The translations under genes and the position numbers were made by a program. This document shows positions 9,381-16,766 of a DNA stretch of 64,000 bases, one piece after another; positions within the stretch are counted from its first letter, which is position 1, and every line of letters starts with the position of its first letter. The notes under the pieces are model-generated. The model saw only the letters and a program-made list of their open reading frames with translations. It was not told the DNA's origin and made no database searches. The stretch is from assembly GCA_043805415.1 (NCBI GenBank), contig JAZDHZ010000033.1, positions 89,600-153,599 on the forward strand. The letters are read 5' to 3'. This DNA comes from Candidatus Omnitrophota bacterium. Lineage in GTDB: Bacteria > Omnitrophota > Gorgyraeia > B26-G9.

Positions 9381-10487
9381 ATGCGGATAATTGCGGTAGC
9401 TAATCAAAAAGGCGGTTGCGGTAAAACAACGACATCAATTAATTTATCTGCTTGTTTAGCCGCGCTTAAAAAAAATGTTTTGTTAATAGACTTAGATCCA
9501 CAGGGACACGCGAGTTTGGGGTTAAATATCCAGCCGCAGGATTTATCAAAAACCATATATAATGTATTGACCACAGATAGCGAAGCCAAATTCCGGCTTG
9601 ATGAAGTTATTATCCCTATATCTGAAAATCTTGATCTGGCTCCGGCAAATATTTTGTTATCCGCGATTGAGCAGGAACTGTCTGGAAAACCAGAAAGAGA
9701 AGCAAAATTATTTCAAGCAATATCTTTAATGGTAAGTAAAAAAACATATGATTATGTAATTATTGATTGCTCTCCAAGTTTGGGTCTTTTGACTTTTAAT
9801 GGATTGCGTGCTGCTACTGAACTGATTGCTCCGGTGGACACTGGATTTTTCTCTTTGCATGGCATAAGCCGTTTACTGGAAACTGTCAATCTTATTGATA
9901 AACGCTTGAATTGTCAGATAAAAGTAAAAGCATTGATCACAATGTTTGATTCCAGAACTAAATTTTCCCATGAAGTAAAAGACGAAATTTATAAATATTT
10001 TTCAGGCAATGTTTTTGAAACAGTAATTCATAATAATGTTAGAGTAAAAGAATCTTCAAGCTATGGGGTACCTGTCGCGGCTTATGATAAGCGCTGCCGA
10101 GGGGCACAAGATTACAGCGCATTAGCCAATGAAGTTGAATCTCCGATGAGCAAGGAAAAAGCTAAAGATAAAACCAGCAGCGCTTCTGAGAAAATAACAT
10201 CTTTTATTCAGGAAGTACAGCAGGTCAAAAAAGGCACAGTAGTTACTTTTAATTCTCTGGACGCGAAAAATGTTGAAATTGCCGGTGATTTTAATAACTG
10301 GGTTAGTTCGGTTGATACTAAACTTGAACGGATTGATAATGGTGTATGGGCTAAAGTGATTCATCTTAAACCCGGTGCTTATAAATATAAATTTGTTGTT
10401 GATGGACAATGGATAACTGATCCCAATAATCCTAAGCTGGAAATTGACGAAGTAGGTAATAAAAATTCGATTTTAGAAGTTAAATAA
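9381..10487 (+). CDS. ParA/Soj-family ATPase fused to a C-terminal AMPK-beta-type glycogen-binding (CBM48) domain
   Basis: Deviant Walker A NQKGGCGKTT, A' LLIDLDPQG, Walker B YVIIDCSPS. The C-terminal ~85 aa are VVTFNSLDAKNVEIAGDFNNW...LKPGAYKYKFVVDGQWITDPNNP...GNKNSILEV. This aligns by eye with the rat AMPK beta1 CBM (VYLSGSFNNW...EGEHQYKFFVDGQWTHDP...NNIIQV). GAGGAGG Shine-Dalgarno. Confidence 0.8.
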   Translation: MRIIAVANQKGGCGKTTTSINLSACLAALKKNVLLIDLDPQGHASLGLNIQPQDLSKTIYNVLTTDSEAKFRLDEVIIPISENLDLAPANILLSAIEQELSGKPEREAKLFQAISLMVSKKTYDYVIIDCSPSLGLLTFNGLRAATELIAPVDTGFFSLHGISRLLETVNLIDKRLNCQIKVKALITMFDSRTKFSHEVKDEIYKYFSGNVFETVIHNNVRVKESSSYGVPVAAYDKRCRGAQDYSALANEVESPMSKEKAKDKTSSASEKITSFIQEVQQVKKGTVVTFNSLDAKNVEIAGDFNNWVSSVDTKLERIDNGVWAKVIHLKPGAYKYKFVVDGQWITDPNNPKLEIDEVGNKNSILEVK

Positions 10488-10507
10488 AAAAACTAGGATT
10501 ATGGTTT

Positions 10508-11425
10508 ATGAATAAATTAAAGAAGTTGGGTAAGGGATTAGAAGACATTTCCTATTTGTTTCTTTCTCCGGAGCAAGAAGATACTATTCAAGAAGAGTCC
10601 ATGGCTGAAAAAAAGAAAATTTTAACTGAAACTATTGAGATTACGACAAAAAACATTTGTTTAATCGGCAATAGCCATGATTCGCGAGATGCTTTTTTAG
10701 TGATTAATTTATCATTAGCTTTGGCTAGACTGGGGATGCGTATCGCGGTAGTTGATATGGATGAGAAGCTTCCTTGTCTAAATTTTTTATTAGGAAAAAG
10801 CGCTAACAATGGATCGCAAAATAATGATCAGGAAATTGTTCGCCAAGGGCCTTTTGGCGTAAAGCTGGCAGGGCTAAATGAGTCTCTGCTTGAAAATATG
10901 TTGGTTGATTCTGTTGCTAGAAAAACAATTATGCTGGAACTGAAAAAAATGGAAGAAGAAGTTGATCTTGTGCTGATTAGTGTATCACAAGATAGCCTTT
11001 ATTATATGAATCCATTGCTTAGAAAATCAATAGAAGAATTTCTAGTTTTTGTTTCTCCGGATAAAAACTCAATGCTTAATTCTTATAAAGTTGTAAAAAC
11101 CATTTTTTCTAATAACCCGGTTGCTAAAATTGGTACGATTATAACTGATATTGAACACATGTATGAAATTGACGCGGTGTTTAATAAAATGTTTTCCGCG
11201 GTAAAGAAATTTCTGGTTAAAGAGCTGTATAAATATGGATTTCTTTTTAAACTAAAACAGGAAATTAATAACAACGCGAATATCGCTTCTTTTTATGACG
11301 CGGATTTGACGGCTTGCATCTCAAATATCGCGCAGATTATTATATTGCGCTTGAACCTTGCGGAAAATGTTAAATCAAGCGGGGAATTATTTAAAAATGT
11401 TTTTAATGAGTTTGGGATAAATTGA
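10508..11425 (+). CDS. MinD/ParA-fold pseudo-ATPase with ParB-N-terminus-like peptide
   Basis: The region ICLIGNSHDSRDAFLVINLSLALARLGMRIAVVDMDEKLPCLNFLLG aligns with the MinD segment SGKGGVGKTT...VIDFDIGLRNLDLIMG. The P-loop is replaced by GNSHDSRD, with no lysines. The N-terminus is MNKLKKLGKGLEDISYLFLS. Confidence 0.55.
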   Translation: MNKLKKLGKGLEDISYLFLSPEQEDTIQEESMAEKKKILTETIEITTKNICLIGNSHDSRDAFLVINLSLALARLGMRIAVVDMDEKLPCLNFLLGKSANNGSQNNDQEIVRQGPFGVKLAGLNESLLENMLVDSVARKTIMLELKKMEEEVDLVLISVSQDSLYYMNPLLRKSIEEFLVFVSPDKNSMLNSYKVVKTIFSNNPVAKIGTIITDIEHMYEIDAVFNKMFSAVKKFLVKELYKYGFLFKLKQEINNNANIASFYDADLTACISNIAQIIILRLNLAENVKSSGELFKNVFNEFGIN

Positions 11426-11432
11426 GGCTGTT

Positions 11433-15058: not shown

Positions 15059-15073
15059 AGCAGTCAAAATCGC

Positions 15074-15102
15074 TTGAATTCTTCAGAGTACTATGCTAGT
15101 AT
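15074..15102 (+). promoter_or_regulatory. possible sigma70 promoter of the GH57 gene
   Basis: TTGAAT (15074-15079), 17-nt spacer, TAGTAT (15097-15102). Confidence 0.3.
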
Positions 15103-15185
15103 AAGAATGTTATTTTAAATTAATTATAAACCTTAAATCTTAAAGGTTTTCCGCAAAAAAGCCACTGGGTATTATAGGGGAAAAT

Positions 15186-16766
15186 ATGGAAAAAGGATAT
15201 CTTTGTATTGTTTTACATGGGCATTTACCTTTTGTTCGTCATCCTGAGCACGCGAATTTCTTAGAAGAAGAATGGCTTTACGAGGCTATAACTGAGACAT
15301 ATATTCCATTGCTTAGTATATTTGATAAGTTGATAGAAGACGGAGTTAATTTTCGGATTACCATGGGTGTATCTCCGCCATTAATATCAATGCTTCTTGA
15401 TCCTTTATTGCAGCATCGTTACATAATGCATATAGAGAAATTAATCGAATTGGCAAGTCGTGAGGTTGAAAGAACAAGATGGCAGCCGGAATTTAATAAG
15501 CTGGCTTTAATGTATCTAAGTAAATTTAATCTTGCCCGATATTATTTTGCCGAAAAACACCGGGGAAATCTTTTAGAGGCATTTAAAAGAATTCAGGATG
15601 CCGGAAGATTAGACATCATGACTTGCGGCGCTACGCATGGGTTTTTCCCATTGATGGATACATGTAGAGATTCAATTCGGGCACAGGTAAGAGCCGCGGT
15701 TGAGCAATATAAAAAAGTATTTCAGCGTCAACCAAAGGGCATTTGGCTGCCTGAGTGTGGATATCATCCTGGTGACGATGAAATCCTGCGGGAAAACGGA
15801 TTAAGATATTTCTTTAGTGATACCCATGGGGTACTTCATGGTACTCCGCGGCCCAAATATGGTGTTTTTGCTCCGGTTTTTTGTAAGTCCGGAGTTGCTT
15901 GCTTTGGACGGGATCTGGAGTCTTCAAAACAGGTTTGGAGCGCTAAGCAGGGATATCCTGGAGATTACAATTACCGGGAATTCTATCGGGATATTGGTTT
16001 TGATCTTGATTTTGATTATATAAAACCGTATATTCATCCAGATGGAATCAGAACAAATACAGGAATAAAATACTATCGGATTACCGGGGAAACCGATAAT
16101 AAACAGCCGTACAATCAAGATGTTGCTATGCAAACAGCGGCATCGCACGCGTCTAATTTTATGTTCAACCGGGAAAAACAGGCGGAGTATGTGAAGGACA
16201 TAATAAAAAGAAAACCGATTATTGTCGCTCCCTATGACGCGGAGTTATTTGGACACTGGTGGTATGAAGGCCCGGATTGGCTTAATTTTTTAATTAGAAA
16301 AATTGCTTTTGATCAAAAAAATATCAAACTTATTTCGCCATCGGATTACTTAGATGAATATCCGAAAAATCAAGTTATTACACCTTCACTTTCCAGTTGG
16401 GGATATAAAGGTTATGCCGAGTTTTGGCTGGAAGGTTCAAATGCCTGGGTTTACAGGCATTTACATAAAGCTTCTGAGCGGATGAGTGAATTAGTTAAGC
16501 TTTATCCCAATGCCGGCGGTTTGACGCTTAGGGCGCTGAACCAGGCTTTGCGTGAAGTATTACTTGCCCAAAGTTCTGACTGGGCTTTTATTATGAAAAC
16601 CGGGACACATGTTTCTTATGCTGTGGATAGAACCAAAAAACATGTGCTTAATTTTACAAAATTATACAATCAGATAAAGGCAGATAATATTAAAGAACAG
16701 TGGCTGAGTGAAATTGAGTCAAAAGATAATATATTTCCTGACATTGATTATCATTACCATTCTTAA
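15186..16766 (+). CDS. GH57-family 1,4-alpha-glucan branching enzyme
   Basis: LHGHLPFVRHPE at the N-terminus, nucleophile region IWLPECGY, acid/base region APYDAELFGHWWYEG. The C-terminal helical region resembles Thermus/Thermococcus GH57 branching enzymes; 526 aa. Confidence 0.8.
   Translation: MEKGYLCIVLHGHLPFVRHPEHANFLEEEWLYEAITETYIPLLSIFDKLIEDGVNFRITMGVSPPLISMLLDPLLQHRYIMHIEKLIELASREVERTRWQPEFNKLALMYLSKFNLARYYFAEKHRGNLLEAFKRIQDAGRLDIMTCGATHGFFPLMDTCRDSIRAQVRAAVEQYKKVFQRQPKGIWLPECGYHPGDDEILRENGLRYFFSDTHGVLHGTPRPKYGVFAPVFCKSGVACFGRDLESSKQVWSAKQGYPGDYNYREFYRDIGFDLDFDYIKPYIHPDGIRTNTGIKYYRITGETDNKQPYNQDVAMQTAASHASNFMFNREKQAEYVKDIIKRKPIIVAPYDAELFGHWWYEGPDWLNFLIRKIAFDQKNIKLISPSDYLDEYPKNQVITPSLSSWGYKGYAEFWLEGSNAWVYRHLHKASERMSELVKLYPNAGGLTLRALNQALREVLLAQSSDWAFIMKTGTHVSYAVDRTKKHVLNFTKLYNQIKADNIKEQWLSEIESKDNIFPDIDYHYHS

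Follow-up and report, generated by a model that had tools for sequence, protein, structure and literature searches.

Gene organization of the locus

A 64-kb stretch of DNA from a metagenome-assembled genome (MAG) of a Candidatus Omnitrophota bacterium, referred to hereafter as the window, contains a gene (g1) for a Soj-type ParA ATPase ending in a predicted glycogen-binding module of family CBM48. The gene immediately downstream (g2), and a gene for a DUF4912 protein (g5) located upstream of the gene for a GH57 1,4-alpha-glucan branching enzyme (g6), encode nearly the same 16-residue peptide, here called the tag, which begins with the motif used by ParB to bind ParA. On sequence grounds, g1 represents a distinct ParA subfamily with a tagged partner of its own, and it is tentatively proposed that the system couples or positions glycogen granules on the nucleoid. 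All the genes discussed are on the + strand, and those that carry the argument are listed here together with their internal features.

9381-10487, + strand: g1, Soj-type ParA with CBM48, 368 aa (ParA, aa 1-255; flexible linker; CBM48, aa 287-368)
10508-11425, + strand: g2, tagged adaptor with MinD/FlhG fold, 305 aa, 20 nt after g1
10520-10567, + strand: tag in g2, KKLGKGLEDISYLFLS, aa 5-20
11433-12128, + strand: g3, NucS-C-terminal-like protein, 231 aa, 7 nt after g2
13105-14988, + strand: g5, second tagged protein, DUF4912
13237-13284, + strand: tag in g5, KKLGKGLEDISTLFLS, internal copy inside the basic region
13416-13750, + strand: 57-nt (19-aa) tandem repeat, about 6 copies, in the basic region of g5 (TRF, repeat search)
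15186-16766, + strand: g6, GH57 1,4-alpha-glucan branching enzyme (Glyco_hydro_57 6e-39, BE_C 2e-41)

An earlier note on this DNA, made from the sequence alone, had read the region as a ParA-type module for glycogen granules. Its five open reading frames (ORFs), with gaps of 20 and 7 nt, were all recovered at the same positions; its gene list had passed over a pgeF/yfiH-type gene (12232-12987) that lies between g3 and g5.

A ParA ATPase with a predicted glucan-binding module

The g1 protein matched the Pfam models AAA_31 (3.5e-53) and CbiA (2.2e-21), both over the cut-off. Among solved structures, its core came closest to Myxococcus xanthus chromosomal ParA (8RAY, 3e-57), with Soj next (about 1e-41). 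The P-loop KGGCGKT (with K10 and K15), D37/D39 and D129 were invariant in a 17-sequence alignment, and were kept in the examined members of the subfamily described below except L037, which reads KGGCAKT, and the N-terminally truncated L079. Two basic residues were also largely retained, namely R192 (M. xanthus R209) in 39 of 43 subfamily members and R221 (M. xanthus R238), as K or R, in 38 of 43; in B. subtilis Soj, R189 is a basic residue of this kind, serving ATP-dependent non-specific DNA binding. In M. xanthus ParA, R209 and R238 are the basic residues tied to non-specific DNA binding, and the R238E substitution abolishes DNA binding (PMC12462528). The numbering of that paper was verified through its D60A crystal variant, which aligns to D39 of g1. 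With its signature lysine, the aspartates of Walker A' and B and both of the basic residues for non-specific DNA binding, g1 is predicted to be a complete Soj-type ParA, so that its description in the earlier note as an active-looking ParA/Soj was justified.

The last 82 residues of g1 matched AMPK1_CBM (3.8e-16, 59.5 bits, cut-off 26.8), and the C-terminus also matched CBM_48 (5e-8, 33.5 bits, cut-off 22.4). Compared with the structures of AMPK beta CBMs, this segment gave an E-value of about 4e-11, and its best PDB matches, from AMPK beta, pullulanase and SEX4, were without exception modules that bind starch or glycogen. Residues W307, K337, W344 and N362 align with W100, K126, W133 and N150 of AMPK beta1, which we take to be the glucan-contact residues (PDB 1Z0M). 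Across the 40 fusions included in the residue table, W307 and W344 were present in 40/40, K or R at position 337 in 40/40, and N or D at position 362 in 39/40. The AMPK-beta-type glycogen-binding domain that had been postulated is thus confirmed as a CBM48, both models being over their cut-offs, and with its glucan-contact residues kept it is predicted to bind glucan.

A distinct ParA subfamily

A protein search retrieved ParA-CBM48 fusions in more than 120 clusters at at least 45% identity, including a member from Schekmanbacteria. A genome scan located 38 distinct fusion loci, hosted by Omnitrophota, Planctomycetota (Pirellulales, Phycisphaerae, Tepidisphaerales), Rokubacteria, Auribacter, Gemmatimonadales, Acidobacteriota and 'Deltaproteobacteria'. 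Judging from their sequences, the fusions constitute a distinct ParA subfamily that spans at least seven phyla.

The signature of the subfamily is a cysteine in the P-loop (Cys13 in KGGCGKT), found in every member whose P-loop could be aligned, including the members L031, L033 and L037, which have no CBM. Three further characteristic residues are Q98 (30/43), F139 (35/43) and H160 (32/43). At the positions of Cys13, Q98, F139 and H160, the canonical ParAs (L040, L072 and M. xanthus ParA) have V, V, V/L and E. Relative to the M. xanthus protein, the changes in the pocket are V116 to Q98, L155 to F139 and E176 to H160. Mutagenesis has identified V116 and L155 as two of the six residues that form the ParB-binding pocket of M. 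xanthus ParA, and E176 adjoins the bound ParB peptide according to nuclear magnetic resonance (PMC12462528). The ParB-docking pocket of chromosomal ParA (M. xanthus V116, L150, L152, L155, L187 and L192) is consequently not preserved as such in the subfamily, where the equivalents of L150, L152 and L187 are still hydrophobic.

In a rough neighbour-joining tree, the subfamily lay apart from canonical ParA, and the members without CBM were nested within it, which suggests that they have lost the module. These members (L031, L033 and L037, and 11 of the loci L091-L170; from Nitrospirota, Vulcanimicrobiota and soil metagenomes) retain a tagged adaptor. The genome scan also brought up canonical pairs of ParA and ParB (L040 and L072); their ParAs are more distant, and in these a normal ParB gene follows. 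No helix-turn-helix (HTH)/CTPase ParB is encoded next to g1, whose downstream neighbours are the pseudo-MinD and NucS-like genes, and no ParB was found among the Pfam-scanned proteins of the window, a scan that left out about 35 of the 65 ORFs of at least 120 aa and was not accompanied by a search for parS. For the proteins examined, the statement of the earlier note that no ParB follows is upheld, and so is the statement that this is not a soj-spo0J pair: the ParA is a member of a separate subfamily and has a partner of its own.

Some other loci containing CBM48 domains, from Eisenbacteria, Neomarinimicrobiota and Patescibacteria (L044, L046, L052, L043), are unrelated; they hold several tandem CBM48-containing genes and look like clusters of enzymes acting on glycogen or starch.

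The tag and its linkage to ParA

The N-terminus of g2 reads MNKLKKLGKGLEDISYLFLS. The 16-aa peptide that it shares with g5, KKLGKGLEDIS(Y/T)LFLS, is identical in 15 of 16 positions, and the 64 kb hold no further copy of the motif. Nine of the 15 shared residues are encoded by different synonymous codons in the two genes; it follows that the tag is conserved at the protein level and maintained by selection, and a recent duplication of DNA is ruled out by the same divergence. The tag is built of the ParB-type ParA-binding motif L-G-K-G-L-x-x-I followed by an S-x-LFLS extension. For comparison, the motif by which ParB binds ParA is L11-G-R13-G-L15-x-x-L18-I19 (PMC12462528). The prediction of a peptide common to two proteins and resembling the N-terminus of ParB has therefore proved correct.

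In the fusion loci of the different phyla, the partner tag takes the form LG(K/R)GLEDxSxLFLS, and variants such as KRLGRGIEDISNIFIS, KPLGRGLEDVSHLFLS and IVRNLREISHFFLS are found at the start of the gene that lies directly downstream of the ParA fusion. It was recognized in this position for 17 of 42 fusion ORFs, a count that includes loci from protein look-up, and essentially never elsewhere in the fusion loci examined. The reverse test consisted of a metagenome scan with the pattern LG[RK]GL[EKD]D[IV]S[HYT], from which the best 80 loci were taken; 75 of these had upstream sequence and could be assessed. In 75/75 the tagged gene came immediately after a ParA of the subfamily, and this ParA had a CBM48 in 64 cases and none in 11 (among the loci L091-L170). 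The linkage between tag and ParA is thus exclusive, and the tag is a conserved hallmark of the partner of this ParA.

The fusion loci L013, L015-L021, L024, L026, L029, L032, L034-L036, L047 and L048 have no recognizable tagged gene within 10 kb. The untagged ParA-CBM48 genes of Planctomycetia/Pirellulales often have long linkers (400-540 aa in total); their partner, if there is any, is encoded elsewhere.

The adaptor: a pseudo-MinD and a nuclease-dead NucS-like protein

In the AlphaFold2 (AF2) model of g2 (pLDDT 76), residues 1-44 are disordered except for a short helix on the tag. The model matched FlhG (4rz2; Foldseek E 3e-15, TM 0.75) and then MinD (1hyq) and FleN. The Walker A motif is replaced, SHDSRDAF standing in place of KGGCGKTT, and the profile scores are under the cut-offs (CbiA, 18.9 bits vs 25.4; minD models, 14-16 vs more than 200). 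Fold and missing Walker A agree with the earlier description of g2 as a MinD/ParA-fold protein with a dead P-loop. The tag was kept in 44/44 Omnitrophota homologues of g2.

Residues 1-152 of g3 have the fold of a RecB-like PD-(D/E)XK domain of the NucS C-terminal type. The N-terminal DNA-binding domain of NucS is missing, and so is the catalytic E-x-K pair, the NucS segment VVLELKR aligning to VVVNFDT; also in this case, profile scores are under the cut-offs (NucS_C, 18.4 bits vs 24; NF003270, 26.9 vs 216). Its classification as a degenerate NucS-like protein is in agreement with these data, and g3 is predicted to be a NucS-fold protein dead as a nuclease. In the g3 family, a disordered linker leads to a conserved C-terminal helix, T(D/P)EEIxxFxxF (aa 211-230 in g3), which has the look of a motif for docking to a further component, perhaps g2 or ParA.

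An exhaustive search showed that the g3 family comprises 350 representative clusters. Among the best 150, about one in three has a length of 200-230 aa and joins the tag through a linker of some 50 aa to the NucS-like domain, and this tag-NucS-like fusion is the commonest architecture of the partner. In Tepidisphaerales (L023, 2744-4240; L038, 1911-3506), tag, pseudo-MinD and NucS-like domain are combined in one protein of 500-530 aa. From these two architectures, it can be concluded that g2 and g3 form a single adaptor in which the NucS-like domain is the constant part, and that the core module is ParA plus a tagged NucS-like adaptor, the pseudo-MinD being present in some cases and absent in others. 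With a median pI of 5.3 and a median net charge of -3, the NucS-like domains are acidic; they are also devoid of the E-x-K pair, and so give no positive sign of DNA binding by the adaptor. The adaptor families are not represented by any Pfam or NCBIfam model.

One deltaproteobacterial partner (L028, 10645-11091) combines the tag with a coiled coil and with an HTH_17-like domain that scores 24.8 bits, under the cut-off of 27; a stand-alone CBM48 ORF of 95 aa (7832-8119) is present at the same locus, 1.3 kb upstream of ParA. A defence system, which the combination of a ParA-like protein and a nuclease fold might have indicated, was discarded, as PADLOC gave weak generic nuclease-fold matches for g3 and nothing for g2 and g5.

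The second tagged protein and the proposed link to glycogen

The g5 protein contains a DUF4912 domain (PF16258, aa 377-495; 7.9e-38, 129.8 bits vs a cut-off of 29.4), followed by a Glucodextran_B-like beta-sandwich (aa 563-619; 6e-6) whose score of 26.5 bits is slightly below the Pfam cut-off of 27. Its N-terminal 330 aa are Lys/Ala-rich, with a net charge of +63, and hold both the tag and the 19-aa tandem repeat. The true start of g5 is probably the ATG at 13114, as in the deposited protein (P0121, 624 aa). The g6 protein belongs to GH57, with a BE_C domain, at the family level only, since it falls short of the NCBIfam equivalog cut-offs (342 vs 1000). Pfam and TRF thus corroborate what had been said of g5, i.e. 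a Lys/Ala-rich repeat protein with a DUF4912 domain encoded upstream of a GH57 branching enzyme. No significant match was obtained with the DUF4912 profile among PDB sequences (best E 0.1).

The DUF4912 gene is directly upstream of a gene for a GH57 + BE_C enzyme in six of seven loci (the window, L001, L089, L090, L086 and L088), the pairing being absent from L087. Two of the six belong to distant metagenomic lineages, and in these a second GH57 gene is also present, accompanied in L086 by glycogen phosphorylase. Of the 23 Omnitrophota DUF4912 proteins closest to g5, 19 have the tag, at full-length identities as low as about 41%. Distant DUF4912 proteins have no tag, and their N-termini are Lys-rich, HC2-like (PF07382) or Rho_N. 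Near-identical tags on g2 and g5 occur together on 10 contigs, that of the window included, and on two contigs g5 is without a tag. A DUF4912 protein genetically linked to glycogen branching thus appears to have been recruited to ParA through gain of the tag. A link of the system to alpha-glucan is supported by two independent sequence features, namely the conserved residues of the CBM48 and the acquisition of the tag by DUF4912 proteins that are paired with GH57.

Gene order

The order ParA-g2-g3-pgeF-DUF4912-GH57 is conserved in L001, L089 and L090, which belong to the same Omnitrophota clade. Within this clade, the flanking genes manC, pilin, uppS, cdsA, dxr, rseP and ispG are conserved equally well, so that synteny says little here; outside the clade the order is absent, and gene order was dismissed as evidence. 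No glycogen genes were found at L002, L003 and L004, the Pfam-annotated contexts outside the clade. The conserved synteny of the fusion with GH57 and DUF4912 genes, which the earlier note had made a test of its hypothesis, is therefore confined to one Omnitrophota clade, and this result counts against the glycogen hypothesis. The evidence from the tag was considered more informative than gene order.

Transcription signals and neighbouring genes

The remaining features of the locus are as follows.

9266-9312, + strand: hairpin with a 20-bp stem, then a T-run, between the pilin-like gene and g1 (terminator scan, inverted repeat)
12232-12987, + strand: pgeF/yfiH-type gene (Cu-oxidase_4 9e-60, TIGR00726 4.9e-48), between g3 and g5
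15020-15049, + strand: strong intrinsic-terminator-like hairpin after g5 (11 pairs, 7 GC, then a T-run)
16956-16987: terminator-like hairpin after g6 (terminator scan)

The hairpin at 9266-9312 is likely a terminator that insulates the ParA operon from upstream transcription. It had been suggested that g5 is transcribed separately, from its own TTGACA promoter to a strong terminator. The terminator (15020-15049) stands, and the hexamer is indeed present at 13039, upstream of g5, but its -10 is poor, it is missing from the list produced by the promoter scan, and promoter-like sites in this AT-rich region are at chance level (31 vs 31.7 in shuffles); as a promoter of g5 it was therefore rejected. 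In addition, the terminator scan detected no terminator between g1 and g5. The pgeF/yfiH gene is in the same position in L001, L089 and L090, a position kept only in the Omnitrophota clade, and is probably a bystander.

Two intergenic elements (8131-8244 and 16771-16966) that resemble each other flank the pilin-ParA-g2-g3-pgeF-g5-GH57 block. Both contain heptad repeats of the GTTATGA type as well as the sequence GCGATACGCGATACGC(R)CGACGCAAT(M)CAGAAAA, and a 16-mer of theirs is absent from the rest of the 64 kb (4 matches vs 0.16 expected). They could be a repetitive extragenic palindromic (REP)-like element, have a regulatory role or be the scar of a recombination event. An antisense ORF (13011-13922, - strand; 303 aa, F/L/A-rich) mirrors the Lys/Ala-rich repeat region of g5 and is almost certainly not a gene.

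Directly upstream of ParA is a type IV pilin-like gene (8715-9224), whose position is conserved in the clade, and a cluster for the assembly of type IV pili (PilM, secretin, PilB- and PilC-type) is located further downstream (23733-31208). The window also encodes dnaB (48747), bamA (50139), lpxC-fabZ (54047), lpxB, an lptD-like gene and glmU (43438). The last of these, an NTP_transferase/hexapeptide gene, had been a candidate for glgC, i.e. for a further glycogen gene, before being recognized as glmU.

Proposed function and alternative explanations

Taken together, the data point to a system that couples or positions glycogen granules on the nucleoid in an ATP-driven manner, a reading to which we assign a probability of roughly 0.45. 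In such a system, ParA-ATP dimers would bind the nucleoid, and each dimer would display two CBM48 modules, giving an ATP-dependent avidity for glycogen granules. Tagged proteins would dock in the pocket at the dimer interface and trigger ATP hydrolysis, thereby releasing the tether, and repeated cycles of tethering and release would distribute or partition the granules over the nucleoid in the style of a diffusion ratchet. The g2/g3 complex would be the ancestral adaptor, while g5 would put the stimulating tag, and a second, polycationic contact with DNA, on the granule itself. With respect to the earlier proposal of a ParA module for glycogen granules, the distinct ParA, its own tagged partner and the glucan link have all held up; the synteny outside one clade has not. 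A more ambitious version, which we put forward with even greater reserve, is that of a phylum-spanning ParA machine for a polysaccharide granule, with an inverted layout in which the ATPase seizes the cargo by its CBM48, a dead-nuclease/pseudo-ATPase stand-in for ParB and clients such as DUF4912 enlisted through a portable tag of 14-16 aa. Its lineages would include Omnitrophota, Planctomycetota, Rokubacteria, Acidobacteriota, Gemmatimonadota, Desulfobacterota-type lineages and others, and, if real, it would make a carbohydrate the cargo of a partition or positioning system for the first time.

Several observations weigh against a glycogen-positioning function. Besides L001, no DUF4912, GH57 or phosphorylase gene was found at the 38 fusion loci, within flanks of up to 10 kb, and about 60% of the genome fusion loci, mostly from Planctomycetia/Pirellulales, have no tagged gene nearby. 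About 10-15% of the subfamily is without CBM48 and yet has the tagged adaptor (L031, L033, L037 and 11 of the 75 metagenome loci), from which it follows that the core function may not need glycogen. Nor does the ancestral NucS-like adaptor have an evident link to glycogen, its fold being normally of the nucleic-acid type. Moreover, classical ratchets put the stimulator on the cargo, whereas here it is the ATPase that would hold the cargo, an arrangement that may amount to tethering rather than directed positioning. Finally, glucan binding, DNA binding and ATPase stimulation are all predictions made from the conservation of residues.

Some of these points would also fit a non-canonical system of DNA segregation or nucleoid organization, in which the tag and the NucS-like adaptor replace ParB as the DNA-bound, centromere-like partner, and in which the CBM48 parks, sequesters or regulates ParA on glycogen, used as a scaffold or as a sensor of carbon status (cf. 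polar ParA sinks and AMPK-beta sensing). It is conceivable, considering that the tag opens with the ParB motif, that the ParA core is nearest to chromosomal ParA, that members without CBM retain the adaptor, that the module is unlinked to glycogen genes outside one clade, and that one deltaproteobacterial partner has an HTH_17-like domain. However, the NucS-like domains are acidic and without the E-x-K pair; a search around the operon for repeated sites of a centromere-like kind gave none, the sole notable palindrome there being the terminator-like hairpin; and the genes usual for an origin region do not adjoin the loci examined. Such a system would, in addition, leave unexplained why a glycogen-linked DUF4912 protein gained and kept the tag, and on balance we regard it as rather unlikely. 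Less probable again is that ParA positions some other cargo, such as a protein assembly or an envelope machine, with the CBM48-like domain binding another ligand and glycogen being incidental. The lack of a model or a known ligand for the adaptor families, the neighbourhood of a pilin-like gene, manC and pgeF in Omnitrophota, and the fact that CBM48 and E-set folds at times serve for protein contacts would all fit this idea, but the glucan-contact residues of AMPK beta are conserved across phyla, all the best PDB matches are starch- or glycogen-binding modules, and the second tagged client is the gene partner of a glycogen branching enzyme. As to an ordinary chromosomal soj with its parB elsewhere, the C-terminal domain and the peptide being incidental, its similarity to M. 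xanthus ParA, 48% at the level of identity, might be cited in its favour, as might the presence of all the catalytic residues; it is already contradicted by the data, given the Cys13 and ParB-pocket changes that set the subfamily apart, the greater distance of the canonical pairs (L040 and L072), followed by a normal ParB, and the position of the tag after a subfamily ParA in all 75 assessable metagenome loci.

Comparison with known systems

Glycogen is the commonest carbon store of bacteria. ParA/MinD ATPases organize DNA, carboxysomes, chemoreceptor arrays, flagella and the divisome, and to the best of our knowledge no ParA/MinD system is known for glycogen. Reviews on ParA/MinD ATPases do not mention glycogen (PMC11407121; PMC10241942), and no ParA-glycogen link, and nothing relevant on DUF4912, was found described in the literature.

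Chromosomal ParABS (8RAY; PMC12462528) has the same ATPase core, with the deviant Walker A, signature lysine, Walker A' and B and residues for non-specific DNA binding, and there, too, the disordered N-terminus of the partner starts with an L-G-(K/R)-G-L-x-x-(L/I) ParA-binding motif. In contrast, no adjacent HTH/CTPase ParB is present here, the body of the partner being a dead NucS fold with or without a pseudo-MinD, and the tag extension S-x-LFLS, the altered pocket residues, the KGGCGKT P-loop and the CBM48 on the ATPase are all peculiar to the system under study. The parts, considered singly, depart from their relatives in a similar way. With respect to the CBM48 of AMPK beta (1Z0M, 2F15), the module of g1 keeps the glucan-contact Trp, Lys, Trp and Asn (E about 4e-11), but it sits on a ParA ATPase and not on a kinase scaffold or a GH13 enzyme. 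Unlike NucS (2VLD), g3 lacks the N-terminal domain and the catalytic E-x-K pair; unlike MinD/FlhG (4RZ2), g2 lacks the Walker A motif; and both are under every curated family cut-off.

PhaF/PhaM-type proteins tether polyhydroxyalkanoate (PHA) and polyhydroxybutyrate (PHB) granules to the nucleoid without an ATPase. By analogy, g5 pairs a histone-H1-like Lys/Ala-rich region with a putative storage-polymer domain, but it has no sequence relationship to phasins and carries a tag for ParA.

With McdAB, PomXYZ, ParC/PpfA and MipZ (PMC11407121; PMC10241942), the system has in common a nucleoid-bound ATPase and a partner with a charged N-terminal peptide that confers specificity (a 'luggage tag'), as well as, according to the present proposal, a cargo other than DNA. 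The difference lies in what binds the cargo, which is the partner in those systems, while here the ATPase itself bears the cargo-binding module. McdAB is likened to it as a functional analogue only, and the window is without carboxysome genes; membership of the McdAB or PhaF/PhaM families is neither shown nor claimed. The locus offers a testable candidate, in which a ParA with a built-in glucan module is combined with a defined docking tag, matching changes of the pocket and a client linked to glycogen branching, and it provides a functional setting for two uncharacterized families, the tagged NucS-like adaptor and DUF4912. Compared with the 'luggage tags' of the systems above, it would represent a natural case of such a tag moved onto a new client, which is relevant to the engineering of positioning systems.

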